64,000 nucleotides of DNA, from positions 1 through 64,000 of IMG/VR virus record IMGVR_UViG_3300008117_000445; one strand, 5' to 3'. Below, one piece after another: positions 17,600 to 62,933 of the stretch. The notes below the pieces were generated by a model. That model was not told the DNA's origin and ran no database searches. It saw nothing but the letters and a program-made list of their open reading frames with translations. Every line of letters starts with the position of its first letter. The stretch's first letter is position 1. Position numbers and translations under genes: made by a program. The stretch comes from a virus.

Positions 17600-17602
17600 A
17601 AT

Positions 17603-21971: not shown

Positions 21972-22035
21972 GTTTTTTTAGGACTACCATTTAACTTTTT
22001 ATCTTTTGTAGATATTTATATTAAAAGGTAGTCCT

Positions 22036-26862: not shown

Positions 26863-26983
26863 AATGAATCTTTAAAAATAAATATTAATCTTTAGTAAAG
26901 AAATAGTCGTTGGCTGTAAATATATGTCAAAATGTTTGGTCAGATTAAATATTATCATTATATTTGTTCATATTTATTAATTG

Positions 26984-28453: not shown

Positions 28454-28464
28454 ATCTAAACACC

Positions 28465-29040: not shown

Positions 29041-29043
29041 AAT

Positions 29044-29610
29044 ATGAAATTTATTTCATCCATATTGGTTTTAATCATATGTTTTGTTTCTTCAGCACAA
29101 GATACACTTGAGATCTGTGCTGGGGAACCCAAAACGGTTAGCTATTTTGCCTCATCAACGAGTGATGGTGAAAATACCTGGAAGGTCAATGGTGAAACAT
29201 TTATTGGTGATGAATTAACTTATACTTATACTCAAGGTGGTTTATACAATATAACTGTACGTAGAGAAAATTGGTTATGTTATGTTGAACAAACACTCCA
29301 AGTTTTTGTAAGTGAATGTCCAGGTGTTACTTTTTGGGTACCAAACACATTTACACCAGATGGTGACGAATTTAATCAATATTTTGGCCCAGTAATGAAT
29401 GAAGGATTTGATGTTGATGGTTATTCGTTTTTGATTTTTAACAGATGGGGTGAAACCATATTTAGTTCATCTGACCCAAATGGAAAGTGGGATGGTATGT
29501 ACAATAACGTTTTATGTCAATACGGAACTTATAGTTGGGTGTTAAGGTTTAATGTTAAAGGTGATGATGGTGTCATTCAAAAATCAGGTAATGTTAATTT
29601 ACTTCGTTGA
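29044..29610 (+). CDS. protein with T9SS type-B C-terminal sorting domain (gliding motility-associated CTD)
   Basis: signal peptide + C-terminal VPNTFTPDGDEFNQYFGP...FNRWGETIF...DPNGKWDGMYNNVLCQYGTYSWVL. Confidence 0.6.
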   Translation: MKFISSILVLIICFVSSAQDTLEICAGEPKTVSYFASSTSDGENTWKVNGETFIGDELTYTYTQGGLYNITVRRENWLCYVEQTLQVFVSECPGVTFWVPNTFTPDGDEFNQYFGPVMNEGFDVDGYSFLIFNRWGETIFSSSDPNGKWDGMYNNVLCQYGTYSWVLRFNVKGDDGVIQKSGNVNLLR

Positions 29611-31572: not shown

Positions 31573-33153
31573 TTATTGATAAACAGGTCCAATCTTTATA
31601 ACGTCAGCACCAAAACCTTTGTTTTTTAATGTGATTTCTTTTTCGTGTGGGTAAAGGATATTATTTTTAATTGATTCATAAAAGTCAATTAATTGTTTTT
31701 GAACTTCAACTTCAATCAAGAATCCTTTTGTTCCGTGTGTTTTATCTTTTGGTGACCTATAATGGTTTTTGATTAATTGTTTCTTGTTCATTGAGTAGTG
31801 ACTTCCAGGGTATTGTGTATCAATCGCATCTTCACTTTCAGCAAACACAACCCGATATAGTTTTAATGTTTCCGGTAGATTGTCATAATATTCCGTTAAG
31901 TCGTTTAATTCAAATATGGCATTATCATTTTCATAACCCATCTCATACAAACAACCAAGTAAGTTATCCGTATTATTTGCCGTTAATCTAACAAAACCTT
32001 CATTTAAATTATTTTCCTTATCTCGGTTCACTTTTTTGATTTCCAAAGGTGGATCCAATAGATATTTTTCATTCAACCAATGTCTCAATTCATTCTCAAC
32101 AAAAAACTCCGGAACTTCTTCATTGTCTGGTTTTTCTGAGGCGACTTCGGCAATGTGCCTGGCAAATTTAACTTTTAATTTATCATCCAACATGGTCATT
32201 AATCCATCGGAAATAAAAAAGATTTTGGACAATGGATCAGAAACACCCAACTCACCCTCAACAAGGTCAAACACCTTCATAATGGTTTTACCCCACCATG
32301 TTTTATATCCGGTAGTTTCTTCAAGTCCGGGTCTGAATATTTTATTAAACGCTCTAATAATTGAACCAGAAAAACCAGCCAGAGCAAGTTGGGGGAAGAA
32401 CCAAGGTAAAAGTCTCAATGTCGCCTTATAACCTCCTTCACCCACATGTAATAATAATCTATTTGTTTTTGCTTCTTCAACCAGTTCTTTTAATTGACCA
32501 AATGTGATTTTACCTTGAGCCTTACAGAATTTTTTGGCATCACAAATGTTTTTGATTGCTTTTGAGGATGGTGTTATATCTTCAGATATGGTGACAAACC
32601 CTTCATTCATTTTATTTTTTGTTTTCTTCAACAAACTTTTAATAAAAAACACAATTCCACTTAAAACGACTCCACTCAATAAAACCTGAATGTTATCCAT
32701 GGTTATACTTCTATCATTTATGATTGTATTAATAAGTTTCATAACCGGGTTCAATAAAAAAGCAAACCCCAATATTTCACTTAATGAATATGAAATACCC
32801 AACACGCTTTTTATAACGGTTCTTATGATGTCCAGGGTGTTCTTGATTAAATTTTTAACACCCTCAAGCGGTTTTGTTAGGTCAAGTTCTTTAATTTTAT
32901 TTAATAGTGAATCCTTATTTTTGTCATTAATTAAAAGTGCAACTGATGTTATAATTAAAAGAACAATTTCATTTTCATTTAATGAGAATCCAGAACCGGT
33001 TAATAACCTTTCCACTGGACCCATAAACGCACCCATTCCGGTACCAAAGGTAAATAAGATTCCGGTATTTATTTTAAGATCATTTAAGGTGTCCTTAAAT
33101 AAATTCTCATTTATTAATTCTAAATATTGTTCTTCTGTTAAAATTACTTTCAT
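31573..33153 (-). CDS. large membrane protein with shared N-terminal leader (MKVILTEEQYLELINEN)
   Basis: 526 aa, several TM segments (GILFTFGTGMGAFMG, VLLIITSVALLI, LLSGVVLSGIVFFI). Confidence 0.55.
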   Translation of the reverse strand: MKVILTEEQYLELINENLFKDTLNDLKINTGILFTFGTGMGAFMGPVERLLTGSGFSLNENEIVLLIITSVALLINDKNKDSLLNKIKELDLTKPLEGVKNLIKNTLDIIRTVIKSVLGISYSLSEILGFAFLLNPVMKLINTIINDRSITMDNIQVLLSGVVLSGIVFFIKSLLKKTKNKMNEGFVTISEDITPSSKAIKNICDAKKFCKAQGKITFGQLKELVEEAKTNRLLLHVGEGGYKATLRLLPWFFPQLALAGFSGSIIRAFNKIFRPGLEETTGYKTWWGKTIMKVFDLVEGELGVSDPLSKIFFISDGLMTMLDDKLKVKFARHIAEVASEKPDNEEVPEFFVENELRHWLNEKYLLDPPLEIKKVNRDKENNLNEGFVRLTANNTDNLLGCLYEMGYENDNAIFELNDLTEYYDNLPETLKLYRVVFAESEDAIDTQYPGSHYSMNKKQLIKNHYRSPKDKTHGTKGFLIEVEVQKQLIDFYESIKNNILYPHEKEITLKNKGFGADVIKIGPVYQ

Positions 33154-33156: not shown

Positions 33157-33615
33157 TTATAATTTAAAACTATCTAATTTTTGATATAACCCCGAGTCCT
33201 TATATACATCAACATCTTCTACATTAAATTCAGGAAACATTTTTATCAATTCTTTAATAAAATCTCTTCTTACGTTTCTATATATTTCAACCATATCATC
33301 ACCTAATTTGATAAGAATTCTTTGTTCAATACCACTATTATAAACAATTAACGGTAACCCCCAAGATGATTTATTTTCTAATATATGAAGATGGTTATCA
33401 CGTAAAATGATATCACCACCCCTTTTTATTACATTTAAATCAGTAAAACAGGACATCAATATATCAATTATATTTTCTTCACCAATTATACTAAAAAGAT
33501 TTTTGAAACCACCAACCATTTCGGCAGTGTCAGCATAACCGTACTCTTCAATTGAATTAATTAAAGTTTGTTTTAATGACTCCTCTTTTAATATTTTTCT
33601 AATTAGTTGTTTCAT
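33157..33615 (-). CDS. leader-family protein (MKQLIRKILKEESLKQT)
   Basis: 152-aa ORF. Confidence 0.5.
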   Translation of the reverse strand: MKQLIRKILKEESLKQTLINSIEEYGYADTAEMVGGFKNLFSIIGEENIIDILMSCFTDLNVIKRGGDIILRDNHLHILENKSSWGLPLIVYNSGIEQRILIKLGDDMVEIYRNVRRDFIKELIKMFPEFNVEDVDVYKDSGLYQKLDSFKL

Positions 33616-33618
33616 AAA

Positions 33619-34005
33619 TTAAAAATTAACCCAAGCCTGCACCTTAAATTTTAAATCAATAGGTGAACCATAAGTGTACAGATCAAAAGAAAAATAATTT
33701 TTAAAAATATCTTCAATATCACTTCTTAATGGACGACTATTTTTTATTTCTTGATCTGTTAATTTAAATTTTAATGTGAATACCATTCTATCAACAACAG
33801 GATTCTCCATACCCAATTTTACGGATCCTAATTTAACTTTTTTCATACTTGTTTCAACTTCAAGTAAATTAGGAAATTCAGAATGAAGGTAATCAATTAT
33901 TTGGTCCTTCATACTTTCTAACCTACCCAACTCCTTATAGTAATGATCAATAAATTCTTGACCCTGAAGTTCCTCATTTAATATTTTTCTAATTAATTTC
34001 TCCAT
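33619..34005 (-). CDS. leader-family protein (MEKLIRKILNEELQGQE)
   Basis: track ORF 33619..34035, internal Met. Confidence 0.45.
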   Translation of the reverse strand: MEKLIRKILNEELQGQEFIDHYYKELGRLESMKDQIIDYLHSEFPNLLEVETSMKKVKLGSVKLGMENPVVDRMVFTLKFKLTDQEIKNSRPLRSDIEDIFKNYFSFDLYTYGSPIDLKFKVQAWVNF

Positions 34006-34058
34006 TATATCATAATAAATAGTTTGATATTTCAAAATAAATTATATATCTTTGTCCC

Positions 34059-36691: not shown

Positions 36692-37903
36692 ATGAAAATC
36701 ATTATAACTGAATCTCAATTAAAACTTATTAAAGAAGCGGTTGGCGTTCCGGAAGGAATATTAAAAGCCGGTGAAGAACTATTTAAAATTGTTGCTTCCA
36801 ATCTAAAAAAAATCAACAATAAAGATAATAAACACGAATTCCACATAACTGAGGAAGAATTACAAATTTCTGATGTTACAATTGATTTCATTAAAATTAC
36901 AGTATCAGTTGAAGAAATTGAAGGTTATGATGGTAAGCCTGTTATCGCATCAATGGGTGTAAATAACGCATTTAGGTTTGATAAAGGAATAATGATGCAA
37001 GTAAGCAAAGTTGATAAGGTAATTGAATTGGAAATTAATTTCATTGTACCAAAAGAATGGGAACCGCAAGACTTATATGAAACATTCATATCAGACGAAA
37101 CACATAATGAATCAGTTATGGCCCACGAAATAATGCACAAATTTCATCGTACAAAAAAAACAAAAGGGTTTGTTGGCGACATTGCCGATTATCAAGCATA
37201 TTCATCTGGGAAAATAAGATTCAATATTCCGGTTCTTGATGATTTTATGCTATATAGTTATTATATCCAAGCTGCCGAAAATACTGTTAGACCAACTGAG
37301 GTTGCCTCAAGGATGATTAAAAAAGGAATAACAAAAGATCAATTTAAAGATTTTCTTAAAGAAGATGAGACATTTAAACAATTAAAACAAATCCAGAATT
37401 TTACTTATGATTATTTGATAAGTAGTTTACGTAAACAAATGGACAGAATTGATGGGTTAATAAAACATATTGGTGATGATCCGAGCAAAATGTCCGTAGA
37501 TTACAAAATTGAGTTTATTTTAAAAATAGCATATGTCAATCTCGTTAATTTAAAGATTGAAATATTTGATAACTATTTTTATGATAATGCGGAGAAGTTC
37601 CTTCAATCTATGGGTGGTTTGTTTGGTAAAGTGAGTAAAGAAAAAGAAGATGTTAGAAAAAAGTTCGTTAATCACGTTGTAAAATATGAAAATAAAGAAA
37701 TGGACTTTTTCAAAGACGAATGTGAACGGTTTAATTATGTTGCAACAAAACTTATGAAAAAAATATCAAAAATCTATGCACTCCTTCCTGATGAAAAGGA
37801 ACAAACAAATGAATCAATATTGGATTGGGAATTACACCAAAAACTTATGGAAAAGAAGTATGGTGAAAGACCAATTCAAAAATCTTATAATTTCAAAAAA
37901 TAA
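36692..37903 (+). CDS. putative HExxH zinc metallopeptidase with shared N-terminal leader (MKIIITESQLKLIKEAV)
   Basis: MAHEIMHKFH zincin motif. Confidence 0.45.
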   Translation: MKIIITESQLKLIKEAVGVPEGILKAGEELFKIVASNLKKINNKDNKHEFHITEEELQISDVTIDFIKITVSVEEIEGYDGKPVIASMGVNNAFRFDKGIMMQVSKVDKVIELEINFIVPKEWEPQDLYETFISDETHNESVMAHEIMHKFHRTKKTKGFVGDIADYQAYSSGKIRFNIPVLDDFMLYSYYIQAAENTVRPTEVASRMIKKGITKDQFKDFLKEDETFKQLKQIQNFTYDYLISSLRKQMDRIDGLIKHIGDDPSKMSVDYKIEFILKIAYVNLVNLKIEIFDNYFYDNAEKFLQSMGGLFGKVSKEKEDVRKKFVNHVVKYENKEMDFFKDECERFNYVATKLMKKISKIYALLPDEKEQTNESILDWELHQKLMEKKYGERPIQKSYNFKK

Positions 37904-41984: not shown

Positions 41985-42185
41985 ATGGAAAAAATTGAAA
42001 TATATGTAAGGTTCGCAAACGAAGGTGTTTATTATGACAAAATAAAGTTAGATCCTTCAAAAATAAGTAATCCAAGGATTTTTACTCAAGAAGTATTTTT
42101 TGATATTGACGGGATTACAGTGGCTACAAGAAAAGAAGATTGGCAAAAGATAGAACAATGGAAAGAAACTGGCAAAAAGAATTAA
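41985..42185 (+). CDS. hypothetical protein
   Basis: 66-aa ORF. Confidence 0.35.
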   Translation: MEKIEIYVRFANEGVYYDKIKLDPSKISNPRIFTQEVFFDIDGITVATRKEDWQKIEQWKETGKKN

Positions 42186-43219
42186 GAGAAATTTTAAAAA
42201 GAAATAATATGAGTGAAGAGTATATTGAAAAAACGGTAGAGTATGGTGATACAATACCTGAAGTAGAAACAACATATGATGAATATCCAGGAATTGAAGA
42301 ACCAGTTATTGGTAGAATAATGGATTCTGAAGAAGATAGAAAAATTGATGCTGACGTACCTTCTTGTTGGAGTAATTTAAAAAATAATGAATATGCGCCC
42401 GCATATGTTACAGTACCAAAGGTTCCTGCCGGTGTTTATGAAATAGGTTGGAATGGTAATTTACAAACTTATACCGTTAAAAAACAACCATTCAAGTCTG
42501 ATGAGTTATACCATCTACCGTCATATGAAATTACAGACATCTTAAAAGATATTGATAATTTTTGGAATAGAGCCGACAATTATAAAAAATACAACTATAT
42601 CCACAAAAGAGGCATTTTAATGTATGGTGAACCAGGTTGTGGTAAGTCAGGTATAATCCAATTAATATCACAACAACTAATTGAAAAAGATGGTATTGTA
42701 ATTAATATCAAAGATGAAGAAGATGTTGAAAGGTTCACATCATTTATTGGAACGTTTAGAAAAGTTGAACCAAAAAGACCATTGATTGTTTTATTGGAGG
42801 ATATTGATTCACTTGCTGGTGAAGGTAGAAGTCAAACTGCTAGATTATTAAACATACTAGATGGTGTTAAACAAATTGAAGGTGTTGTATATATTGCAAC
42901 AACAAACTACCCGGAGAAGTTACAGGAAAGAATCACCAACCGTCCGTCCCGTTTTGATAGAAGATATAAAGTGGAACTTCCAAATGAAGATATTAGAAGG
43001 GCTTATATTGAACATAAATTAAGTGAAGAAGATTTAAAAGGTATTGATATTGAGGAATGGATCAAAAAAACTGAAGGGATGTCATTGTCACACTTAAAAG
43101 AAGTTGTAATTTCGGTTATTGTTATGGGTAGAACTTTTGAAGAAACAATTGAAAATCTTGAAGGGTTGAAAAAAACACCAACAATTAAAGGTTCTGGTAA
43201 GATGGGGTTTGGAAAATAA
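42140..43219 (+). CDS. classic AAA ATPase
   Basis: Walker A GEPGCGKSG, Walker B LLEDIDS, second region of homology ATTNYPEKLQERITNRPSRFDRR. Confidence 0.8.
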   Translation: MAKDRTMERNWQKELREILKRNNMSEEYIEKTVEYGDTIPEVETTYDEYPGIEEPVIGRIMDSEEDRKIDADVPSCWSNLKNNEYAPAYVTVPKVPAGVYEIGWNGNLQTYTVKKQPFKSDELYHLPSYEITDILKDIDNFWNRADNYKKYNYIHKRGILMYGEPGCGKSGIIQLISQQLIEKDGIVINIKDEEDVERFTSFIGTFRKVEPKRPLIVLLEDIDSLAGEGRSQTARLLNILDGVKQIEGVVYIATTNYPEKLQERITNRPSRFDRRYKVELPNEDIRRAYIEHKLSEEDLKGIDIEEWIKKTEGMSLSHLKEVVISVIVMGRTFEETIENLEGLKKTPTIKGSGKMGFGK

Positions 43220-44909: not shown

Positions 44910-45357
44910 TTTTTCAACATACAAATTAAGAGGTGACGACCTTAAACTTATTAGGTTTGATTTCAACTTCAGATCATCAGATGCTTATGATGTGATATAT
45001 GACATATTAAACAATGATGAAAAGAGAAACGTTGGATTCATAACTACAAAATATCCAAATAGTACATCGGATTTAAATGATGAACAATATTGGGATATAT
45101 TATTATTGGACAACGAAGTTTTGTTTTACTTAGAGAATATGTTGGTTAAATATGGAATTGTTTATACAATCACTGATATTACGGACCAATATATTAAAAA
45201 ATCAAAAAAACTAGAAAAGGATTTCATTGAAGAAATTGACAATTATGTTGAAAAGTTATATGATGTTGATCAGATATTGGATAGGATTAATGAAGTTGGA
45301 CTTGACAAGATAAACAAATTTGAATTAAATTATTTACAAAAACAATCAAAAAAATGA
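44902..45357 (+). CDS. hypothetical protein
   Basis: 151-aa ORF. Confidence 0.45.
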   Translation: MIDFSTYKLRGDDLKLIRFDFNFRSSDAYDVIYDILNNDEKRNVGFITTKYPNSTSDLNDEQYWDILLLDNEVLFYLENMLVKYGIVYTITDITDQYIKKSKKLEKDFIEEIDNYVEKLYDVDQILDRINEVGLDKINKFELNYLQKQSKK

Positions 45358-46082
45358 ACTACGGAAAAGAATTTAGAAGTTTTGCAAAAAGTGAAGGAAT
45401 CAGTTCACTAACATTGGATCAGTTTGAATCATCACTAACACCATATATTTTGGAAGAAAGGGAATTAAGGGCAACCCAAATTGATATTTTCTCAAGATTA
45501 ATGGTTGATAGGATTATTTGGTTATCCGGACCCGTTGACCAACGAATGTCAGATATTGTCCAAGCCCAATTATTATTTTTGGATTCGGTTCAAAAAAAGG
45601 ATATTACACTTTATATTAATAGTCCTGGAGGTTCGGTTATGTGTGGGTTGGGAATTGTTGATTTGATGAATTATGTTTCTTCAGATGTGGTAACAACAAA
45701 CATTGGAATGTGTGCGTCAATGGGTTCCGTTTTATTATCATCCGGAACAAAAGGTAAAAGATCGGCTTTGGTTCATTCAAAAGTTATGACACATTTTGTT
45801 AGTCACGGAACAAAAGGAAATATCCAAGATACCAGAATTGACCAAATGGAAGGTGAAAAATATAACTACATATTATTTAAAATATTGGCCGAGAATTGTG
45901 GAAAAACATTTGATGAAATGTACGAAACATCCAGAAGAGATAAGTGGTTCAATTCTGACGAAGCCCTTAATTTTGGTTTGGTTGATGAGGTAATTGGTGT
46001 TGATAAGAACAAAACGATTACAAACTATTTGGAGGGATTTGACGACTATTACAAAAAAGAAGTTTTAAACTACAAAAAATAA
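45354..46082 (+). CDS. clpP: ClpP-family serine protease
   Basis: IDIFSRLMVDRIIWLSGPVDQ, INSPGGSV, active-site GMCASMGSVLL, full-length alignment to ClpP fold. Confidence 0.8.
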   Translation: MNYGKEFRSFAKSEGISSLTLDQFESSLTPYILEERELRATQIDIFSRLMVDRIIWLSGPVDQRMSDIVQAQLLFLDSVQKKDITLYINSPGGSVMCGLGIVDLMNYVSSDVVTTNIGMCASMGSVLLSSGTKGKRSALVHSKVMTHFVSHGTKGNIQDTRIDQMEGEKYNYILFKILAENCGKTFDEMYETSRRDKWFNSDEALNFGLVDEVIGVDKNKTITNYLEGFDDYYKKEVLNYKK

Positions 46083-52387: not shown

Positions 52388-53416
52388 ATGAGTGAAGCAG
52401 CAAGAGAACTATTAGACGAATTTAATGACGGTAATTGGAATGAAGTTGGTTCGTATTTCAACGACGACTTTGAAACATTTTTAGATTATCTAGAAAAAAA
52501 TGGTTTAGAAGGTGAATTAGATTATGAAAATGTTGACGATGAATGGCAAAATATAATATTACTTCGTAAATTAGAAAAATATCCTCAAGAGACATTAAAC
52601 TACATTTGTGATAATATAATTACAGATGTTTATTATATGGAAGGTGGATATTATCTATATCTAAGAGAAAGAGAAGAACTGGCAATTCTATTTAGTAATT
52701 CAGGAAGAGACTTTAGTTCAAGAGATGCCGCTGAAAAAGTATTAAGTGAAGACTTTTGGGATCCTTATTGGGACACAACAGATGATGTTTATAGTGATGT
52801 GATTGATGAACTAAATGAGGAAAATAAAAATCATTTAGCAAACTATATTGTAAAAATTATGGGGAACCAAGAATTATCACTTAATGATTATGATGATGGA
52901 CTATTTGAACAATTCTCAGAAAAACAAGGAACCGAAGGGGTTTTTAAAATAGATAGTGAAAATGTAATGCAACTTATTGGTGACGAAATGGCAATGAAAG
53001 AATTGTTTAGTAAAGATCTTGATGAATTAAAAAGTGAATTATATTCTTTACATAATAACGCATATAACGGAGCATATACTGATGAAATATATGATAGTGT
53101 ATGGAGTGAACTTTCAGAATACTTTGAACCAAAATCATGGAAATATGAACAAAAAGATAGATACGATGGTAAAAAAATTCAACATGAATATATTAAAATA
53201 AAAGATTTTTATAATGATATTCATACCTTTTTAAGTGAAAATGAAGATAGACAGTGGTCAGATCAAAGTTTAGAGTATTGGGGTTCATATACTGGATTTG
53301 TTTCACATATGATGGATAACGGAGAAAGGAGTTGGTTAGATTTTAGAATACCAGACTATCCAGATTGGACATTAATCAAAAAGAACATAAATGATAATTT
53401 AGATTCGTATATCTAA
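52388..53416 (+). CDS. hypothetical acidic protein
   Basis: 342-aa ORF. Confidence 0.45.
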   Translation: MSEAARELLDEFNDGNWNEVGSYFNDDFETFLDYLEKNGLEGELDYENVDDEWQNIILLRKLEKYPQETLNYICDNIITDVYYMEGGYYLYLREREELAILFSNSGRDFSSRDAAEKVLSEDFWDPYWDTTDDVYSDVIDELNEENKNHLANYIVKIMGNQELSLNDYDDGLFEQFSEKQGTEGVFKIDSENVMQLIGDEMAMKELFSKDLDELKSELYSLHNNAYNGAYTDEIYDSVWSELSEYFEPKSWKYEQKDRYDGKKIQHEYIKIKDFYNDIHTFLSENEDRQWSDQSLEYWGSYTGFVSHMMDNGERSWLDFRIPDYPDWTLIKKNINDNLDSYI

Positions 53417-54351
53417 TGAAAGTAATAGTAACACAAAAACAACTTGAACAAATTAGAGAAAATGTATCTAAAAAATTTAGTTGTGAAAAATGTGATCATT
53501 CCTGGAAAATAGAAAAAGAAGATAAACATCCATATCTATGTCATATGTGTGGTTATGATTCTGCAAAAGAAAAACATAACTACGACGAACTTGAAAACTT
53601 TTGGAAGAACTATAAAAAAGAAGAAGAGGTTACAGAAAAATGGTCAGAGAAATATAAAAAAAGTATTAACTGTAGTAACCCTAAAAAAATATTATCAACG
53701 GTGATTGAATTTGCAACACCTGAAATAAAAAACATTCTTAATGATGAAAATATCACTATAACCTATGAAATAGAACCTCATAGATATTCAGAATTAGGTT
53801 TTTACACTATCATCACAACATTAAATATTTTAGATAAAAATAGTAACACAATAAAATTAAGTTTGACTGAGAAAGAAGACATTATTGATATTCTTTTTGA
53901 TTATTTAAGTTATATGGGGGAAGATCAACAAACCGAAACATATGACTATAGTTTTGATTTTAAAAAATATAAAATTTCTTATAACTTGAATGAAAATGAT
54001 CAAACACACTTGAGATTAAAAAAATATGGTTACGACATTGAAAAAATAAAACAAGCCCTTCAAATGCTATCTCAAGTTTCAGAATCGGTTGGTGAATTTG
54101 TTCCACTAGAATTTAAACTATATGGTTATCATTTAAGAAAGTTTAATACTGGGTTGCCTGTGTTAATACTTTTTATTGATGTAGATACAGAAGGTGGTGT
54201 TTATAATACTATGAGCGAAAATTGGCACGACATCGGAATGCAATTATTAGATATTTTTCAAATGTTGGGTATTAGAGACGAGAGATATATGAGACCTATG
54301 TATGATTTTAAATTTAATAAAAGATCATTAGATAACATCACAATTGTTTGA
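53416..54351 (+). CDS. leader-family protein (MKVIVTQKQLEQIRENV) with Zn-ribbon
   Basis: CEKCDHSW...CHMCGYD. Confidence 0.5.
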   Translation: MKVIVTQKQLEQIRENVSKKFSCEKCDHSWKIEKEDKHPYLCHMCGYDSAKEKHNYDELENFWKNYKKEEEVTEKWSEKYKKSINCSNPKKILSTVIEFATPEIKNILNDENITITYEIEPHRYSELGFYTIITTLNILDKNSNTIKLSLTEKEDIIDILFDYLSYMGEDQQTETYDYSFDFKKYKISYNLNENDQTHLRLKKYGYDIEKIKQALQMLSQVSESVGEFVPLEFKLYGYHLRKFNTGLPVLILFIDVDTEGGVYNTMSENWHDIGMQLLDIFQMLGIRDERYMRPMYDFKFNKRSLDNITIV

Positions 54352-54415: not shown

Positions 54416-54664
54416 ATGGGAACAAAAGCAGGACAAAAGGGTCGTTACATTTGTAAAGTTGGTTATTTGGATGTATATGCTAAAGACGCACACAAACCAA
54501 AAAAAGCAAGTAGATACAAGTTTACTGTTGCTGACGTGAAATCAACAGCGTATCAGATTTTACACGGTAAAAAAGTGGTTAAAGGTGATTTAAAAACAAA
54601 AGATGATGCGGTAAATGAGGCAATCACATTAATGGGTGATAAAGCCAAAATTTATGGACTTTAA
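54416..54664 (+). CDS. small basic protein
   Basis: 82 aa, Lys-rich. Confidence 0.45.
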   Translation: MGTKAGQKGRYICKVGYLDVYAKDAHKPKKASRYKFTVADVKSTAYQILHGKKVVKGDLKTKDDAVNEAITLMGDKAKIYGL

Positions 54665-54682: not shown

Positions 54683-54712
54683 AGAAAGTCAGGGCAAACT
54701 CCTGACTTTTTT
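54683..54712 (+). terminator. rho-independent terminator
   Basis: AAAGTCAGGgcaaactCCTGACTTTTTTG. Confidence 0.6.
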
Positions 54713-54734
54713 GTTTGGTTCAATATTTATTAGT

Positions 54735-55640
54735 ATGTTATTCAAAAAACGTGATTTGGTTACTGAAGATACCAGTGAAGAAAGTGTCATTAAAAAAGTG
54801 ATATCAAAATTAAAAGATGTTAAACAAAGAGCAACATCCGAAATAAAGGAAACCAGGGCTCTTGTTAGGATTTTAACACACGCTGTAAAATCTTATAGTA
54901 AAAAAAGAGATTTTGACTTAAACGAACAAGATAAAAAATTTATTAAAGGACAATCAACTGATGTGATTAAAAACATCATAATTATGATTGTTGCCATTAT
55001 ACCTTTACCAATACCATTAACTCCATTTTTGGTGATATTTGGAAAAAAACTTGGAGTTGACTTTATACCTCAAGAACAAGAAATACCAGAAAAGGGAAAA
55101 TCCAAAAAAGAAAAAGTTGAGGAATCAAAAAAGTTAAATATTGTAATAACCAAAGAACAATATGAGTTATTAAATGAGATTAACAAAACAGATAAAAATA
55201 GACTTCAGAGACTTTGTACAAATCAAAAAGAAAATAAACCATTTTGTAGTTTACTACAAATGAGAGAAAAACTAACTGATATTGATCAAGTACAACTTGA
55301 TAAATCAGTTAATATATTGGACGATTATTTTAGATTCAGTAACGTTGGGATGTTTCCTCGTATTGTTGAATTAGCACTTAAAGATGAAGGGAGAACTATC
55401 AACTATTTAAAATTGATTTCAGACTTTATTGTGGACGATCAATTTGATGATACCAATACTAAAAAAATATTGGATAAACAACGTTTTTCAAAAGATGTTC
55501 CGGAAAATTTGGATGATATTTTAAAACAAGCCAGAACCTTGGAACATCAAAAATATGAAGAAAGTTTTGTTGGTTACTCAGGGAAGTTATTATTTAAAGG
55601 CCGATCTTGTAACAACAAAAGATTTAAAATACGAAGGTGA
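54735..55640 (+). CDS. membrane protein carrying an internal copy of the leader motif (LNIVITKEQYELLNEINK at ~aa 140)
   Basis: N-terminal TM segments (IIIMIVAIIPLPIPLTPFLVIFG); track ORF 54711..55640. Confidence 0.45.
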   Translation: MLFKKRDLVTEDTSEESVIKKVISKLKDVKQRATSEIKETRALVRILTHAVKSYSKKRDFDLNEQDKKFIKGQSTDVIKNIIIMIVAIIPLPIPLTPFLVIFGKKLGVDFIPQEQEIPEKGKSKKEKVEESKKLNIVITKEQYELLNEINKTDKNRLQRLCTNQKENKPFCSLLQMREKLTDIDQVQLDKSVNILDDYFRFSNVGMFPRIVELALKDEGRTINYLKLISDFIVDDQFDDTNTKKILDKQRFSKDVPENLDDILKQARTLEHQKYEESFVGYSGKLLFKGRSCNNKRFKIRR

Positions 55641-56088
55641 GGTTATATTTCCAACAGGGACTTATTTTGAAGTTAAAAAAATGGATCCATTCATTGACAG
55701 TTATTTATCTGAGTTCTTCTCAATATTTAAAGAAACCGAAAAAATTGTATTTAAAGGTGAATACGTTGAACTTTATAATGAATTAATCCAAAGGATTTTT
55801 GAATGGTTAAATAATAACGAAGATGCTGAGGAATATTTGGATAAAGTTAAGTCACAAATCGGTGGAATAATTTATGAATATCAAACAATAGTACCAAGTG
55901 AATTTATTGATCTTTATTGGTCAAACAAAGGTCAACGTGGTTGTGATGAAAAGAGACTATCAATTAGGTTTAGAATTAAACCGGGCGTAAGTGAAATAAA
56001 AACATTTAGATTTGTTGATAGTGAAGAACTTGAACCAGTGGTTAAAAAGGTACCATATAATCAAAATGAAAAAGTTATTTGTATATGA
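55555..56088 (+). CDS. hypothetical protein (start uncertain; overlaps previous gene by ~85 nt)
   Basis: 177-aa ORF. Confidence 0.35.
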   Translation: MKKVLLVTQGSYYLKADLVTTKDLKYEGEVIFPTGTYFEVKKMDPFIDSYLSEFFSIFKETEKIVFKGEYVELYNELIQRIFEWLNNNEDAEEYLDKVKSQIGGIIYEYQTIVPSEFIDLYWSNKGQRGCDEKRLSIRFRIKPGVSEIKTFRFVDSEELEPVVKKVPYNQNEKVICI

Positions 56089-56375
56089 AAATAATAGTAA
56101 CGGAAGAACAATTTAGGGGACTTTTAGAATCACAACAAGATGATGAACGCGTTGTAAGAAACGCACTATACAGCATTTGGCAAGATGAACTTGACTCAAT
56201 AGGAGAAATTGACTTTGACCCAAAGATTGCAAATTATATAGGTTACAAACAAATAGGACATGTTCACGAAATATATAGAGATTTTCTTGGTGGTTGGGAC
56301 AATATGGTTGAAAAATCATTTGAACTAATGGATAGAACTTTTGATACTATGGATTATAATTTTAGTGGTGGATAA
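56088..56375 (+). CDS. leader-family protein (MKIIVTEEQFRGLLESQ)
   Basis: first of four tandem leader-family genes. Confidence 0.5.
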   Translation, partial: KIIVTEEQFRGLLESQQDDERVVRNALYSIWQDELDSIGEIDFDPKIANYIGYKQIGHVHEIYRDFLGGWDNMVEKSFELMDRTFDTMDYNFSGG

Positions 56376-56428
56376 GTCACAAAGAAAACGGGAATATTAA
56401 TTGAAGTAAACAACTTTTGGATAAAATA

Positions 56429-56833
56429 ATGAAAATAATAATAACAGAAAGTCAGTACAAAATGTTATTGGAATCAAATACTGAATCTATGCAAAGTCTT
56501 ATTGACCTTGCGTTTGATGCTGTAAAAGAAAATTGTGAAAAAGGTTATTACGTAATGGCACACCATGATTATATATGTAACCCAATAGAAATGATTGAAG
56601 AAATTAAAGTTGTTGAGGTATCAAAAAAACAAGTAATGGATTACTTTGAAAAAGATAAAAATGATATAATCAATATAACTGTTGATTTTTATATTGACTC
56701 TATTCGTGAATATAATAATTTAGATAATTTTATTTACGAATTACAAGAAGAAGCGAGAAGTGTTGTTGGTGGTAAATTTATTACGATAAATTATGGAGAA
56801 GTGATTAATAAAAGAAAAAACTTTGATTGGTGA
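56429..56833 (+). CDS. leader-family protein (MKIIITESQYKMLLESN)
   Basis: second of tandem array. Confidence 0.5.
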   Translation: MKIIITESQYKMLLESNTESMQSLIDLAFDAVKENCEKGYYVMAHHDYICNPIEMIEEIKVVEVSKKQVMDYFEKDKNDIINITVDFYIDSIREYNNLDNFIYELQEEARSVVGGKFITINYGEVINKRKNFDW

Positions 56834-56835
56834 TG

Positions 56836-57657
56836 AAAATAATAGTAACGGAAGAACAATTAAACCATTTAGTTGAAAACGTGAGTCCTTGTCCTAAAGG
56901 GAAAAAAGAAGATAAATTAGTGACGTTAAATGACCTTAAAAGGGGTTCAATAATTGAAAAAGGTTATTGTAATTCCAATAGTGAATCGGCGATTGTTAAA
57001 ATACAAAAAATGTTACAAGATAAAGGACTTTTGGATAGAAGTAGTTATCCAGGTTATTATGGTGATAAAACACAAGAAGCCATAAAAAAGTTGTTTACTG
57101 GGATTAATGTAACCGGTCAAAAAATAGGCCCAAAAACTTTAACAAAGTTAGAAACACCAAAAAAATCAGAAACTGTAACCAAAAAAAGTGGACTCGTAAG
57201 TAAAGTTGAAGCTGAAAAATTATTTAATGGATTAAGTTATAGTGAAAAAGTTTTAGTTTGTACATTATTAGGTGAAGCCGGAGGTGAAAAAAATCCAAGA
57301 AACGCAATGACCGCAATAGCTAATGTTTTAAGAAATAGAGCTAAAAAAGGACATTTAAAAAAAACAACAATGGTTGACCAAGCCTTAGCACCATTTCAAT
57401 TCTCTATGTGGAATAATAAAAGTACCTCAACCGTTTTTAATGAACTTAAAAATCACGGACAAATGGCAACTGCAATTGATATAGTAAAAAATATTAATTC
57501 ATTATCCGACATTACAAATGGGGCACTATATTATTACGCAAATTACGTTTCACCAAATTGGGCAAAAAATACAGATACAACTATATGGAAGGAAACGGCG
57601 GAAATAGGTAAACATATATTTGGAAATGTGTTACCTAAACGAAAAAAAAGAAAATAA
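56836..57657 (+). CDS. leader-family cell-wall hydrolase: PG-binding domain + SleB-like Hydrolase_2
   Basis: MKIIVTEEQLNHLVENV leader; IVKIQKMLQDKGLL..YYGDKTQEAIKKLF (PG_binding_1); LVCTLLGEAGGE...NVLRNR...APFQFSMWN (cell wall hydrolase SleB family). Confidence 0.6.
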   Translation, partial: KIIVTEEQLNHLVENVSPCPKGKKEDKLVTLNDLKRGSIIEKGYCNSNSESAIVKIQKMLQDKGLLDRSSYPGYYGDKTQEAIKKLFTGINVTGQKIGPKTLTKLETPKKSETVTKKSGLVSKVEAEKLFNGLSYSEKVLVCTLLGEAGGEKNPRNAMTAIANVLRNRAKKGHLKKTTMVDQALAPFQFSMWNNKSTSTVFNELKNHGQMATAIDIVKNINSLSDITNGALYYYANYVSPNWAKNTDTTIWKETAEIGKHIFGNVLPKRKKRK

Positions 57658-57658
57658 A

Positions 57659-58225
57659 ATGAAAATAATAATCACTGAAAATCAATTCAATATACTGAGT
57701 GAACAAAATCTTAAAGAGTTTTTGTACAAATTCTGGGATAGTCAAAAGAGACAGGGTGAAGAACCATCACTGGATGATATTATATTTCAAGTCACAGATA
57801 TAACAAAAAATAACACAGAAGATCACCGATTAATAAGACCTATATGGTATGAATATAATGGTGGATATGATAAGTTATTAAAAAAAATAGATGAGGAGTT
57901 TTTAGATAAAAAGTTTTATTTGGAAGGTAGAGAAAATCTTAAAATGGATTTTAAAGTTAATAATATTGAATCTTATGGTGTTGATGTTTACGGTGGAATG
58001 GTTGACGTTGGTTGTCGTATATTAGGGGGTACTGTTGATGGGTATGTTTATAATGAAGAAACTGAAGAATCGGAAATGGTTCCTAATATGGATATTAGAG
58101 ATCAATACGCGGAATTAGAATATGATACTGGTGATTTTGACGATTTTTTAAAGTCTGAAATTTATAAATTTTTGGACAATAAATTTGAAATTTATGGTGT
58201 ACCTTTTTATATAGAAATTAATTAA
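57659..58225 (+). CDS. leader-family protein (MKIIITENQFNILSEQN)
   Basis: fourth of tandem array; internal Met of track ORF 57620..58225. Confidence 0.5.
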   Translation: MKIIITENQFNILSEQNLKEFLYKFWDSQKRQGEEPSLDDIIFQVTDITKNNTEDHRLIRPIWYEYNGGYDKLLKKIDEEFLDKKFYLEGRENLKMDFKVNNIESYGVDVYGGMVDVGCRILGGTVDGYVYNEETEESEMVPNMDIRDQYAELEYDTGDFDDFLKSEIYKFLDNKFEIYGVPFYIEIN

Positions 58226-58264: not shown

Positions 58265-58516
58265 ATGAAAACTTTTAGACAGAATTTAAATATTTGGCTT
58301 GAAGAACAAAAAAACGAATCCGGTAGTCCGGAAGTTAAAATTGTTTTGGAACAAGTACAAACATATATTAAAAGTCAGGAAAAAGAGGAAGAAAATATGG
58401 TAAATTCCGCATACGATAGAGGGTACTTTGATAAGGAATTAAAACACACAAAAAAAGGAAATTATTACCAACAGACATATAAATTACATGATAAACTTAA
58501 AAAAATGATAAAATAA
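58265..58516 (+). CDS. hypothetical protein
   Basis: 83-aa ORF. Confidence 0.4.
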   Translation: MKTFRQNLNIWLEEQKNESGSPEVKIVLEQVQTYIKSQEKEEENMVNSAYDRGYFDKELKHTKKGNYYQQTYKLHDKLKKMIK

Positions 58517-58517
58517 A

Positions 58518-58832
58518 ATGGAAATAACAGCTAAAGAATTACAAGAAAAAATCCAAAACGGTGATAAAATAATATTGAAATTAGGTGCCGAATGGTGCCA
58601 TCCATGTAATATCCTTAATCCAATTTTTGAAAGGGTTTCAAGTAACAATGAAACTGATGTACAACTATTTACAATGGATGTTGACAAAAATAGTGACTTT
58701 GTTAAGTCATTAGGTGTGAGAAGTGTACCGACAATTAAATTATTTAACAACGGTGAAGTGATTGAAACCAAAGTCGGAATTCAAACTGAAGAACAAATCA
58801 AAACTTTGGTTAGTAATTTAAACTCCAATTAA
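58518..58832 (+). CDS. trx: thioredoxin
   Basis: active site AEWCHPC, thioredoxin fold length and downstream VPT cis-Pro. Confidence 0.7.
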   Translation: MEITAKELQEKIQNGDKIILKLGAEWCHPCNILNPIFERVSSNNETDVQLFTMDVDKNSDFVKSLGVRSVPTIKLFNNGEVIETKVGIQTEEQIKTLVSNLNSN

Positions 58833-59562: not shown

Positions 59563-59976
59563 ATGAGACGGTTAATTAGAGAAAATCACAACAAACAAAA
59601 ACTAAGAGAAAATCTTGAAACCTTAATTTATATAATTGAGACAAATAAAAAAACAAATCTTATTGAATCAATTGAACTTACAGATGTAAACTATTATGAA
59701 AAATCAGGATCATTTGATGCTGAAATTAAAGTTAAAAGTTGGTTTGAAGAACATGATTTGACCGCGTTAGCTGATACATTAAAAGAAATTGATAGTGATA
59801 TATGGCAAACAATGGGACGTTATGAATTTGATAAAAATTTAAATATTAAAAAAATACCTATACACGGTTTTTCAAATTTAATGTGGGCAACAACTGCCGT
59901 TGATTGGGACATACAAACAAATCAAGATTTAAATATTAGATTCGCAATTATCCAAGATAAATTTAGAGATGAATAA
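59563..59976 (+). CDS. leader-family-like protein (MRRLIRENHNKQKLREN)
   Basis: 137-aa ORF. Confidence 0.45.
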   Translation: MRRLIRENHNKQKLRENLETLIYIIETNKKTNLIESIELTDVNYYEKSGSFDAEIKVKSWFEEHDLTALADTLKEIDSDIWQTMGRYEFDKNLNIKKIPIHGFSNLMWATTAVDWDIQTNQDLNIRFAIIQDKFRDE

Positions 59977-61861
59977 TTTAATTCAAAATATAATCAGAGA
60001 AGAAACGGATCAAAGTAAATTATATTTGAAGGGTATAGATATTACTGTATCAATCCTAAAAAAATATTATCCATTTATAATTGGTTGGGAGTTAAAAAAC
60101 GAATACACATCATTTTTTGAAATTGATGTGATATGTGATATTAATAAAACATCTGAATTTTATGATAGTCCGATACTTCCTGAGTTTTTTGAATATGGTT
60201 TCAGATCGGTTCCTTATCCGCACTGGTTACTTGATTTATGTAATAAATTAAATGAGGATGAAAATTTCGCTTTATACAGAGATATAAAGAATGAACTCAA
60301 CGAAATATACGATGAGATTCCTAATGAATTTAAAAAATTATTTGGTACCGCCAAAAATGTGTATTTAGACATTACAATTGATAGGTTCATATTCGTTAAT
60401 CCAGAAAAACTTGAAGAATCAAAAAGAGTTAACTTAAAAGAAAAATATAAAATACCCAAAGATGAATTTGTTGAATTATATAGGGATAATGATTTTATTT
60501 TGACAATACCATTAACACACGAAGCATCAAAGAAATATGGTTCTGACACCAAATGGTGTACGACAACCAAAGAGTGTTCAAAAAAGTTTGAGGATCACAC
60601 AAATTTAGGTGTTTTAGGTTATATTACAATAAGAGATAAAGAACTAAAAAATAAGTTAGAAAATAACGCCTTTGCTTTATATAGATTGTATGGTGACGAC
60701 GTAAATAGAACCATAGTTTTTGATGATCAAAACAATGAATATAGAAACGGAGAGCAATGGTTATCCAACAAGTTTGATAGAGTTGATAAGTTGTTTCAAT
60801 TTTACAAAATGTTTAGAAATTTCAATGAGTATTTTGAAAAACAAAATGTTAAAAAACAAATTAACGAATCTGAAGATAGACCAAATAAAGAGATTATTAA
60901 TAATGTAGTAAACGAATTAATATTACCAAATTATAAAGATGTTATTTGTGATATTGAATATATTGATAAAGACGAAAGATTAGATTTTTGGGGTGAACCA
61001 TCCTTTAATCAATCTAGAGTTACTATTACCTTTATTGGTGAAAAACCATTAAAAATTAAAGAACGGGACAAATATGATAATATAATGAATGAAATTTGGG
61101 ACACAATTCACGATTATGTGGGTATAAGTGTTGATCTTTATGCGAGGTATAGTGATAAGTGTGAAAAAGAAAATATAAATGAATCTAAAGACAGACCAAA
61201 CTATTTGGGTGTAATTGAAAAATTGGTTACCAGTTATAAAGATAGGGAATTTGTTTGTGATGTTGAGGTTTTATACGATGAAGAAGATGATTTTTATGTT
61301 GTAACATTATGGTTTGATCCAGAACAAATGGGTGAAAGACCTGATTTTTATGTTAAAAATTTAAGAAAAGAATTAACCACCGAAATTAAAAATTATCTAC
61401 CAATAGATAATATATATGTTGGTTCCGGTGGTAATGTTGGTTGTAGTAAGAAACGAATAACAGAAAATAAAATTCCATCATCAGATTATAATTCGTTAGA
61501 GAAGGTTATGAATCTGGTAATGGAAGAAAAATATGATTGGTGGAAAGATATAAAAATTAATAACATATTCAACTGGGGTGGACCCAATGATTATAATAAC
61601 TACACAAATATAGAAGCCGAAATAACAGTTGACGAAGATTGGGGCGGTAACCAATGGAATGAATATAATCCTCATATGGAATTTCCTGGAAATAAAGGGT
61701 GGGAAGATAATGAAGAATACGAACTAGTGAGTCTTGGTGACATAATTGGGTCAAACTTAGCTAACGAAATAAGAGAAACCATTTCGGAAGTTTTAAAATA
61801 TACATTAGGTATTGAAATAAACACAATGTCCTTTAGGAATTTAATGTTAATTTTTGAGTAA
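59969..61861 (+). CDS. large leader-family protein (MNNLIQNIIREETDQ) with internal domain duplication
   Basis: 630 aa; NESEDRPNKEIINNVVNEL... and NESKDRPNYLGVIEKLV... mark two copies of a ~100-aa module. Confidence 0.5.
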   Translation: MNNLIQNIIREETDQSKLYLKGIDITVSILKKYYPFIIGWELKNEYTSFFEIDVICDINKTSEFYDSPILPEFFEYGFRSVPYPHWLLDLCNKLNEDENFALYRDIKNELNEIYDEIPNEFKKLFGTAKNVYLDITIDRFIFVNPEKLEESKRVNLKEKYKIPKDEFVELYRDNDFILTIPLTHEASKKYGSDTKWCTTTKECSKKFEDHTNLGVLGYITIRDKELKNKLENNAFALYRLYGDDVNRTIVFDDQNNEYRNGEQWLSNKFDRVDKLFQFYKMFRNFNEYFEKQNVKKQINESEDRPNKEIINNVVNELILPNYKDVICDIEYIDKDERLDFWGEPSFNQSRVTITFIGEKPLKIKERDKYDNIMNEIWDTIHDYVGISVDLYARYSDKCEKENINESKDRPNYLGVIEKLVTSYKDREFVCDVEVLYDEEDDFYVVTLWFDPEQMGERPDFYVKNLRKELTTEIKNYLPIDNIYVGSGGNVGCSKKRITENKIPSSDYNSLEKVMNLVMEEKYDWWKDIKINNIFNWGGPNDYNNYTNIEAEITVDEDWGGNQWNEYNPHMEFPGNKGWEDNEEYELVSLGDIIGSNLANEIRETISEVLKYTLGIEINTMSFRNLMLIFE

Positions 61862-61863
61862 AA

Positions 61864-62559
61864 ATGAAACAACTAATTAGAAAAATATTAAAAGAAGAAA
61901 TTAACAAGAAGTTTACAAAACCTAATGAGAAATTAGATAGTCTTGTTTATAATTGGTTAGACAACTATTTTGAAGGTTCACAAATTTACAAAGAAGAATA
62001 TTGGAAATATTATGGTTTCACATACCAATTTTGTAAAAATAGTAGAGAAATTGCAGATTTAAGAATTGAATTTGATGACAGAAGCCCTGATTGGGGACCA
62101 AGTGATAAAAGACCAACAAGTGAAAGAAGTGTTAAAGAAGTAATGTTATACATTTATCCTATTATGGTAAATGAGTTAGTTACAGATATACCAATTAGAA
62201 AAAACTATTTATTATATCTTATTGAAGAATGGTTTGAAGATACAAAATTAGATGAAATCCAACAAGAGTTCAACAGAAATGATTTATCTTTAGATTATGT
62301 TTCCGTATTTGAAAGTAGAAAAAGAGGAGATATATGTGTTCCACCACCAACAAAACCTGAAGGTGTAACAATGCAAGAAATGATGGATTACATCAAAAAA
62401 AATACTTTGTTTTCTTACAAAGACATGGAAGAACATGAAGAAGATGAACCAGGTTGGATTGAAAAAACATATTTAGGAAAACTTCAAGGAAAAGAAAAAG
62501 AAAGAATTAATCAAGAAGATAGAGAAAATAATCCTGAACCATTTGATGATAGATATTAA
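61864..62559 (+). CDS. leader-family protein (MKQLIRKILKEEINKKF)
   Basis: 231-aa ORF. Confidence 0.5.
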   Translation: MKQLIRKILKEEINKKFTKPNEKLDSLVYNWLDNYFEGSQIYKEEYWKYYGFTYQFCKNSREIADLRIEFDDRSPDWGPSDKRPTSERSVKEVMLYIYPIMVNELVTDIPIRKNYLLYLIEEWFEDTKLDEIQQEFNRNDLSLDYVSVFESRKRGDICVPPPTKPEGVTMQEMMDYIKKNTLFSYKDMEEHEEDEPGWIEKTYLGKLQGKEKERINQEDRENNPEPFDDRY

Positions 62560-62564
62560 ATAAG

Positions 62565-62933
62565 ATGAATCTACAAGAAAACATAAGAAGAATATTAAAA
62601 GAAGAAACAGAAGGTATGTCACCACTAGAGCAGACAGTTGCTGATTTTATTAATATGAATCTATCTGAATATGATTTACCAGAAGACTTTGATAGAGTTG
62701 CCGTAGATATATTTGATAATGAATATGATAGAAAAGAGTGTGTAGTGACCATATTATTTGAGAAACCATTTAATTTAAAAGATTCAGATAGAATGCATGA
62801 TATAATGAATGAAATAAAAAAAGAAATCAAAAAATATTTTGGTGATACTTTTTGGTATATAAAATTAGGAACATCGACGGTAGATGTTTATAACAGTACC
62901 AAAGATTGGTACACCAAAAGAAAGAATAAATAA
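62565..62933 (+). CDS. leader-family protein (MNLQENIRRILKEETEG)
   Basis: 122-aa ORF. Confidence 0.5.
   Translation: MNLQENIRRILKEETEGMSPLEQTVADFINMNLSEYDLPEDFDRVAVDIFDNEYDRKECVVTILFEKPFNLKDSDRMHDIMNEIKKEIKKYFGDTFWYIKLGTSTVDVYNSTKDWYTKRKNK

Follow-up and report, generated by a model that had tools for sequence, protein, structure and literature searches.

RESULTS

Four consecutive genes share an N-terminal leader

The 64,000-nucleotide stretch of viral DNA analyzed here (IMG/VR record IMGVR_UViG_3300008117_000445, positions 1 to 64,000; hereafter, the window) contains an array of genes that begin with the same short leader peptide, and this leader is the subject of our study. Four consecutive genes on the + strand, with starts at 56085, 56429, 56833, and 57659, open with the pattern MKII[IV]TE.Q[FYL]..L.E, their N termini being MKIIVTEEQFRGLLESQ, MKIIITESQYKMLLESN, MKIIVTEEQLNHLVENV, and MKIIITENQFNILSEQN, respectively. 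A first-pass annotation made from the sequence had described this common leader, and rereading of the sequence confirmed it; the start that had been given for the array, 56088, was 3 nt off, as gene 1 begins at 56085. The 21-nt leader DNA described as common to the four genes, ATGAAAATAATARTAACRGAA, is exact in genes 1 to 3 but differs at 2 bases (ATC ACT) in gene 4. With up to 3 mismatches allowed, it matches the window 8 times, against 0.11 matches expected by chance from shuffled sequence. A protein-motif scan and a leader hidden Markov model (HMM) together placed four extra copies at 53416(+), 36692(+), 33153(-), and, in frame within a gene, 55134(+). Conservation among the leader genes begins at the ATG, and the DNA 5′ of the ATG is not conserved.

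Gene 1 (56085 to 56375, +) encodes 96 amino acids (aa) with an isoelectric point (pI) of 4.3, its leader codons occupying 56085 to 56132, and is a truncated copy of a 184-aa gene, owing to a deletion of about 210 bp relative to sibling contigs. Gene 2 (56429 to 56833, +; 134 aa, pI 4.6) is without a known domain and has 371 homologous 90%-identity clusters in public metagenomes. In gene 3 (56833 to 57657, +; 274 aa, pI 9.7), the leader is followed by the Pfam domains PG_binding_1 and Hydrolase_2, in agreement with its initial description as a peptidoglycan-binding, SleB-like cell-wall hydrolase. Gene 4 (57659 to 58225, +) encodes 188 aa with a pI of 4.3, so that genes 1, 2, and 4 (pI 4.3 to 4.6) are the small acidic proteins they had been taken for. 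That the proteins downstream of the leader are unrelated was only partly right, because genes 1 and 4 are distant paralogs that fall into one cluster by way of intermediates and align weakly; the other pairs are without similarity. BLAST among the window leader proteins with the first 20 residues removed found no similarity.

The remaining leader genes of the window are more dispersed. One, at 53416 to 54351 (+), encodes 311 aa with a Zn-ribbon-like CxxC...CxxC cargo and is 339 to 340 aa long in sibling contigs. A 511-aa gene of the sibling contigs corresponds to 54711 to 56088 (+), where it is split into two open reading frames (ORFs; 54711 to 55640 and 55555 to 56088) because of a 158-bp deletion; its in-frame internal leader copy, LNIVITKEQYELLNE, lies at 55134 to 55181, behind a hydrophobic, Lys-rich N-terminal module. 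The leader gene at 36692 to 37903 (+) encodes 403 aa, and its ortholog in locus L079 has an HExxH motif (HEIMH). The leader gene at 31573 to 33153 (-) encodes 526 aa, with a cargo containing several hydrophobic segments. Comparison with near-identical metagenomic contigs such as L123 places internal deletions of 84, 158, and 210 bp in the window, at 53685, 55574, and 56374; long microhomology is absent at all three, and they may be real variants or artifacts of assembly.

The leader is conserved as a peptide and is predicted to lie outside the fold

The consensus of this leader, termed leader A, is M1 K2 I3 I4 I5 T6 E7 x Q9 [Y/L/F]10 x x [L/I]13 x E15, with conservation spanning 15 to 16 residues and fading near residue 16. 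Q9 is found in nearly 100% of the copies, E7 in 94%, and E15 in 47%. Considered as triplets, I5-T6-E7 is present in 94% of leaders and L/I-x-E15 in 47%, as is any hydrophobic-x-E triplet ending at residue 15; at least one hydrophobic-x-E triplet falls within residues 11 to 20 in 72% of leaders, compared with 13 to 25% in control windows. In 117 leader genes lying outside the DNA search pattern, the residues are kept while synonymous codons vary (ATA/ATT/ATC, ACA/ACT/ACG/ACC, GAA/GAG, and CAA/CAG), from which it follows that selection acts on the leader peptide. ATA accounts for 51 to 65% of Ile at leader codons 3 to 5 versus 37% in gene bodies, a moderate excess.

AlphaFold models of two of the array proteins placed the leader apart from the rest of the protein. 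For gene 4, the mean predicted local distance difference test (pLDDT) score was 90.3 (body, 90), and residues 1 to 10 scored 48; for gene 2, the corresponding values were 75.8 and 54. In both models, residues 1 to 6 are coil and are followed by a short helix detached from the confident body. The models thus portray the leader as a flexible tag outside the fold and not as part of a common folded domain, the latter being a possibility that had been raised at the outset as fatal to the idea of a tag. Foldseek comparison of the gene 4 model with the PDB and viral structures gave no annotated match, and phmmer searches with two cargo proteins against PDB sequences gave insignificant matches only. 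A Sec, Tat, or lipoprotein signal did not fit the leader, in which three or four aliphatic residues are followed by T-E-x-Q and an acidic helix, with no h-region of about 10 to 20 residues. Neither did a ribbon-helix-helix domain, as conservation ends near residue 16, not after about 45 aa, and the AlphaFold models show coil at residues 1 to 6 and no strand.

Distribution and cargo

At least 119 stretches of IMG/VR viral contigs contain the leader DNA pattern. Searching with an HMM built from the leaders, as the first-pass annotation had proposed, revealed the leader on hundreds of genes of related phages: 337 matches in 1.06 Mb (IMG/VR loci plus the window), 315 of them at an N-terminal Met preceded by fewer than 40 open codons. 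When loci were gathered through the gene 4 cargo and not through the leader, all 58 carried leaders (235 matches in 602 kb). The leader is virus-specific: across 596 Gb of bacterial and archaeal genomes, a longer form of its DNA pattern matched a single contig, of 1.8 kb. A profile that included 42-aa N termini retrieved only 40 candidates from an index of 5.8 billion proteins. Among GenBank phages, blastn of the region found no DNA similarity, and tblastn of genes 2 and 4 and of one gene with the type B motif described below, as well as a 29-aa leader query, gave no match. The leader was likewise not found in 40 kb of LR745206.1, 150 kb of Tenacibaculum phage PTm1, or 50 kb of Flavobacterium phage immuto. 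It had initially been judged unfamiliar from any described phage system, and a full-text literature search for leader strings found no paper.

The 220 unique leader proteins fall into 76 BLAST cargo clusters, 45 of which are singletons. Many clusters are ORFans, and the few cargo proteins recognized by Pfam are mostly cell-wall enzymes, with matches to PG_binding_1 (three clusters), Hydrolase_2, Peptidase_M23, Glyco_hydro_19, and Phage_lysozyme plus LysM; four clusters are peptidoglycan lytic (SleB-type, M23, GH19, and lysozyme plus LysM). A few conserved proteins carry an internal leader behind a hydrophobic, Lys-rich module. None of the identifiable replication, nucleotide-metabolism, and metabolic enzymes of the window bears the leader. 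In locus L106 (1567 to 2922, -), three tandem 147-aa paralogs of one leader gene (MKIIITENQSDKINHRIKS...) stand beside a gene for an Fe/Mn superoxide dismutase-domain protein.

The window also encodes a lysis pair without the leader (8761 to 9934), consisting of an amidase endolysin at 8761 to 9690 (-) and a holin at 9767 to 9934 (+). Because this pair is present, the SleB-like enzyme of gene 3 counts as an additional wall hydrolase; such extra enzymes are typically virion associated in well-studied phages.

A second N-terminal motif and the modularity of the leader

A second motif, type B, has the form ..I[RK][RK]IL[KR]EE (e.g., ..IRKILKEE) and, by the strict pattern, occurs six times in the window, each time 4 to 15 residues from an N-terminal Met. 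Two type B genes lie at 61864 to 62933 (+; MKQLIRKILKEE... and MNLQENIRRILKEE...) and two at 33157 to 34035 (-; MKQLIRKILKEES... and ..MEKLIRKILNEEL..). A gene at 77 to 406 (+), the start of which was estimated from an internal Met in ORF 17-406, has a hybrid A/B N terminus, MKKIVRLTERDLTRIVKRVIKES. Type B was also noted in the window region 59969 to 61861 and at the N termini of conserved genes just 3′ of gp23 and 5′ of the terminase in other loci (L148, L156, L182, and L149).

An exhaustive profile search assigned 56 representative clusters to the gene 4 family, the members of which begin with leader A, with type B (e.g., MLKEKYLKKIIRKVLSEN), with a hybrid (MRITENHIKKIVKKVLLEN), or with none of these. 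Since one cargo family can bear A, B, a hybrid, or neither, we regard the leader as a separable, exchangeable module with two flavors.

The array is hypervariable, and leader DNA is a site of crossover

The array is bounded upstream by a conserved 82-aa gene (54416 to 54664, +) and downstream by a conserved 83-aa gene and thioredoxin (58265 to 58832, +). Between these anchors, the content and order of the cassettes vary among near-identical strains and syntenic relatives: the genes encode 511, 134, 274, and 188 aa in contig L121; 511, 184, 134, 274, and 188 aa in L123; 504, 287 (lysozyme plus LysM), 190, 183, 134, 274, and 188 aa in L122; and 503, 279 (hydrolase), 189, 185, 134, and 329 aa in a 280-kb metagenomic contig that is a syntenic relative of the window. 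The array neighborhood is syntenic on jumbo contigs of 214 to 292 kb.

The gene 1 cassette is missing from L121 and L124, and in each case the junction falls exactly inside the leader repeat. L121 crossed over within ATGAAAATAATA and L124 after ...GTAACGGA; as these points differ, two independent leader-to-leader deletions took place. Leader DNA therefore acts as a crossover site for cassette loss, although this recombination is more plausibly a by-product of the shared sequence.

Leader genes occur in a lineage with a T4-type head module

The head module lies outside the window, and the lineage was characterized through related loci. In two of these, L032 and L046, Pfam annotation revealed a 148-aa leader gene inside the head module. 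The order there is large terminase; Portal_T4 (E = 4e-68, with an intein); a 247-aa gene (TTG start; 238 aa from the first ATG); the leader gene; a 155-aa gene; Peptidase_S77 (the T4 gp21 family, E = 4e-22); a 71-aa gene; a 508-aa gene in the position of the scaffold; and Gp23 (E = 2.5e-74). The leader gene of this phage thus stands between gp20 and gp21. The other 78 gp23 loci have no leader A match, and six that were inspected show a gap of about 270 bp at this place. The 148-aa leader-gene family is also found in the baseplate module of several contigs, where it follows the gp25 and Baseplate_J genes and precedes a 1,761-aa gene, and in one contig two leader-gene copies flank a GDSL, PG_binding, and tail-lysozyme protein.

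At least 600 IMG/VR stretches, some of them on contigs of 229 to 321 kb, carry a gp23 of the L032/L046 type. A 272.6-kb contig combines a gp23 match, an S77 homolog (76% identity), and a leader array that includes the gene 4 family and is syntenic with the window; a 152-kb contig has a gp23 match together with the gene 4 family. Because gp23 and S77 share contigs with the gene 4 family, the cargo families of the window belong to T4-like jumbo phages that have a gp21-type protease. The lineage is one of uncultured T4-like jumbo phages of about 230 to 320 kb, and its host is probably a member of the Bacteroidota.

Some further features of the head loci were noted. The T4-type portal gene of L032 (6059 to 9154, -) is interrupted by an intein (Intein_splicing, E = 2e-16). 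Inspection of ten loci for a T4-type late-promoter motif pointed to a conserved stretch ahead of gp23, which may belong in part to the 3′ end of the scaffold gene. The S77 protease genes of the 272.6-kb and 296-kb contigs lie at L182 7370 to 8098 and L137 7259 to 7984, and the putative scaffold gene of L137 spans 8408 to 9934. Portal and prohead protease genes are separated by a conserved 238-aa gene (L137, 5478 to 6194; orthologs in L148, L149, L156, L182, and L204) that starts MKFGIIKSKIEKLFVES; this N terminus has a loose ..K.L.ES likeness to leader A, but the likeness lacks statistical support, as the leader HMM does not pick it up.

Other features of the window

The G+C content of the window is 31%, and its genes include those for a YadA-like fiber, thymidylate synthase, RNA ligase, an AAA ATPase, thioredoxin, and homing endonucleases. 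A cluster at 1244 to 2609 comprises four tRNA-like genes, one of which has the anticodon CTA (amber-suppressor type; tRNA-Pyl according to ARAGORN), and two have odd anticodon loops. A TnpB/IS605 OrfB-like gene (OrfB_IS605 plus Cas12f1-like TNB) at 2971 to 4239 (-) lies beside a tail-fiber gene, and the sibling contig L128 has a resolvase gene some 1.3 kb past the TnpB-like gene. At 21132 to 22770, thymidylate synthase is directly followed by a free-standing GIY-YIG homing endonuclease (N terminus GIYRIKNLVNGKIYYGSS); the Pfam families of the window ORFs also include the I-TevI zinc finger and NUMOD3, an ensemble that recalls T4 td and I-TevI. A full-length ClpP-like gene (PF00574, E = 5e-53) at 45354 to 46082, the product of which has its best relatives (60% identity) in uncultured phages of 634 to 642 kb and Lak megaphages, is preceded 2 kb upstream by the AAA ATPase gene (42140 to 43219), and both lie outside the head modules. 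Among ORFs within about 10 to 53 kb, Pfam identified the CBASS inhibitor Acb3, the Thoeris inhibitor Tad6, and an RNA-repair set of polynucleotide kinase, RNA ligases, a HAD "Swiss Army Knife" domain, and cREC_REC. Several genes at 26981 to 29610 and at 17201 to 18584 have signal-peptide-like N termini, and domains of the SprB repeat, PKD, and CHU_C (type IX secretion sorting) families occur among the window ORFs. Together these features suggest phage-encoded cell-surface proteins and, through SprB and CHU_C, a Bacteroidota host.

DISCUSSION

A capsid-loading tag as the favored interpretation

We favor the view that the leader is a capsid-loading or processing tag, that is, a nonhomologous and greatly expanded analog of the capsid-targeting sequences (CTS) of phage T4, with two flavors and a larger set of cargo, and we estimate the probability of this at roughly one half. 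A capsid-targeting leader had been suggested by the first-pass annotation. The suggestion is consistent with all of the computational tests that were run and gained from the S77-bearing lineage, the L/I-x-E pattern, the flexible and separable nature of the tag, its location in a hot spot, and the presence of an extra hydrolase. The scale and N-terminal position of the leader, its restriction to viruses, the cell-wall enzymes among its cargo, and the leader genes inside head and baseplate modules also speak for it. Sequence similarity to the T4 CTS was not detected. According to this model, the leader would dock the tagged protein onto the scaffolding core during prohead assembly, and the gp21-type S77 prohead protease would then cut after a leader Glu, at I-T-E7 and/or L-x-E15. 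The freed cargo would remain in the head and be ejected with the DNA into the next cell, where cell-wall hydrolases might aid entry, and small acidic proteins, putative metalloproteases, and other cargo might act on the host.

A number of observations weigh against this interpretation. The leader HMM scores T4 ipI, ipII, and ipIII below 0 bits, with no match, and since it fails on these N termini there is no evidence of homology to the T4 CTS. The L/I-x-E motif is very short in proteins that are rich in Glu, Ile, and Leu, and E15 is missing in about half of the leaders. Tagged genes are numerous, at least eight of type A and at least six of type B in 64 kb, and internal leaders and cargo with several hydrophobic segments are unlike T4. 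The insertion of a leader gene into the head module is found in 1 of about 79 related phages, and most arrays are remote from the structural genes and have accessory genes as neighbors. Searches of GenBank phages and scans of PTm1 and immuto found no cultured relative with the leader. Finally, prohead-core binding, cleavage, virion presence, and ejection are steps that we infer, and for virion incorporation and cleavage this too counts against the model.

A bolder version, which we consider somewhat less probable, is that in this abundant lineage the two flavors (MKIIITE.QY..L.E and ..IRKILKEE) form a loading code by which dozens of unrelated effector families are packed and injected, with the leader DNA doubling as a crossover site for the shuffling of cassettes. 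If so, the injected repertoire would extend far beyond that of any studied phage, to several classes of cell-wall hydrolases, putative metalloproteases, and many small acidic proteins.

Alternative explanations

The leader might instead be a recognition tag in the cytoplasm, a degron or an adaptor-binding peptide through which many accessory proteins reach a common hub, such as a ClpP-like protease with an AAA+ partner, so that their lifetime is limited or they are localized during infection. The ClpP-like protein and AAA ATPase of the window, the exposed, flexible, N-terminal character of the leader, and the position of most arrays among accessory and anti-defense genes are in line with this, and the Met-basic-hydrophobic x3 beginning of the leader presumably resembles one class of ClpX N-terminal signals. 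However, we consider this explanation unlikely, as it gives no reason for tagging cell-wall hydrolases and accounts neither for the leader genes in head and baseplate modules nor for the L/I-x-E pattern in phages that encode a gp21-type protease, and the 40 kb around the closest ClpP homolog, that of the 634-kb phage LR745206.1, is without the leader. The ClpP-like protease had also been named among the possible partners of the leader in the first-pass annotation; as the processing enzyme it was set aside and is probably irrelevant, because its gene is not part of a head module and the lineage encodes an S77 protease of the gp21 type.

Lower still is the likelihood that the leader is an envelope-targeting or export signal, by which hydrolases and membrane-active proteins made in the infected cell would reach the membrane or periplasm. 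The four peptidoglycan-hydrolase clusters, the PG_binding and LysM domains, the hydrophobic segments of some cargo (such as the gene at 33153), and the internal leader behind a hydrophobic module would all suit such a role. On the other hand, the sequence has no hydrophobic core, its five aliphatic residues being followed by an acidic amphipathic helix; most of the cargo is small, acidic, and soluble; a normal holin-endolysin pair is already there; and no secretion machinery was seen in the window.

We attach little weight to the idea that the leader is kept mainly for reasons of DNA or RNA, as a recombination site and/or an A-rich translation-initiation region, with a functionless peptide. 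The two strain-level deletion junctions exactly in leader DNA, the shuffled order of cassettes between relatives, and the excess of ATA at codons 3 to 5 are what it would lead one to expect, but the residues persist despite abundant synonymous changes at every conserved codon, the motif spans 15 to 16 residues with conserved Q9, aromatic or Leu at residue 10, and L13, and type B leaders, which differ in their DNA, stand in for type A on one cargo family. Least credible is descent of all leader genes from one ancient family whose bodies have diverged beyond recognition, leaving no common present role: genes 1 and 4 are distant paralogs and many clusters are ORFans, but the cargo includes unrelated defined folds (Hydrolase_2, M23, GH19, and T4-type lysozyme plus LysM, among others), the leader lies outside the fold in the AlphaFold models, and members of a single cargo family differ in having it, lacking it, or bearing another motif in its place.

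Implications

Should the leader prove to be a capsid-loading tag, the injected-protein repertoire of a widespread group of uncultured environmental jumbo phages would become readable from a simple sequence rule and would amount to hundreds of candidate anti-defense and entry effectors. The internal-protein strategy of T4 would then appear to be ancient, reinvented with another peptide, and greatly scalable, and the leader would offer a new portable tag for packing foreign proteins into phage heads. Whatever the mechanism, the leader-to-leader junctions represent a clear case of a coding repeat that drives cassette exchange in a phage hot spot.

Comparison with known systems

Conserved short tags on unrelated proteins are familiar from outside the phage world. 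The MIX and RIX motifs of type VI secretion effectors are conserved N-terminal marks on polymorphic effectors with unrelated C-terminal activities; they belong to bacterial secretion systems, whereas the leader is essentially absent from bacterial genomes. The encapsulation peptides of microcompartments and the cargo-loading peptides of encapsulins are short, amphipathic, helical tags that load unrelated cargo into a shell. The type B motif (..IRRILKEE) resembles a helix of this kind, but the shell in the present case would be the phage prohead, and no bacterial microcompartment (BMC) or encapsulin family is among the Pfam families of the window ORFs (25 of 27 listed).

Among phages, the closest parallel to the behavior of the array at the DNA level is found in the hyperplastic regions of T4-type genomes, where short conserved boundary sequences of the PeSL promoter-terminator cassettes are likewise crossover points at which accessory genes come and go (PMC2839356, PMC4122927). 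The repeat described here differs in being a coding leader and not an intergenic promoter or stem-loop, with unconserved DNA upstream. The jumbo phages phiKZ, 201phi2-1, and SPN3US load many head proteins, propeptide-bearing inner-body and ejection proteins among them, which a gp21-related protease trims after Glu (S/A-x-E) (PMC9026906); their propeptides are not one conserved leader, and the lineage considered here is T4-like (Gp23, Portal_T4, and S77).

The T4 internal proteins are the most instructive comparison. The T4 CTS are N-terminal propeptides of 10 to 19 residues that target internal proteins to the prohead core; gp21 takes them off by cleaving after L/I-x-E (PMC9026906). In Ip1 to Ip3, the leader is the sole common part; their genes occupy genomic hot spots, and the proteins are injected and act against restriction (PMC12373910). 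More than 30 internal-protein variants, at two highly variable loci, are known from the T-even phages (PMC2839356). In the T4 sequence AF158101, ipII and ipIII start MKTYQEFIAE followed by A, and ipI starts MKTFKEFTSTTTPVSTITE followed by A; because the ipI gene product has 95 aa and mature IPI has 76 residues (PMC3012670), ipI is cut after ...STITE, that is, after I-T-E.

The present leader differs from the T4 CTS in several respects. It has no detectable similarity to MKTYQEFIAE or MKTFKEF...ITE and instead an invariant MKIIITE.Q core, it exists in two interchangeable flavors, A and B, and its copies can be internal; the presumed cargo is far more varied, forming at least 76 clusters and extending to enzymes such as cell-wall hydrolases. 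The likenesses are those of organization. As in T4, a short N-terminal peptide (here of 15 to 16 residues) is common to otherwise unrelated, nonessential proteins; the genes reside in hypervariable hot spots (PMC12373910, PMC2839356); and the phages have a gp20/gp21/gp22/gp23 head core, with a leader that holds L/I-x-E, the motif at which gp21 cleaves in T4.

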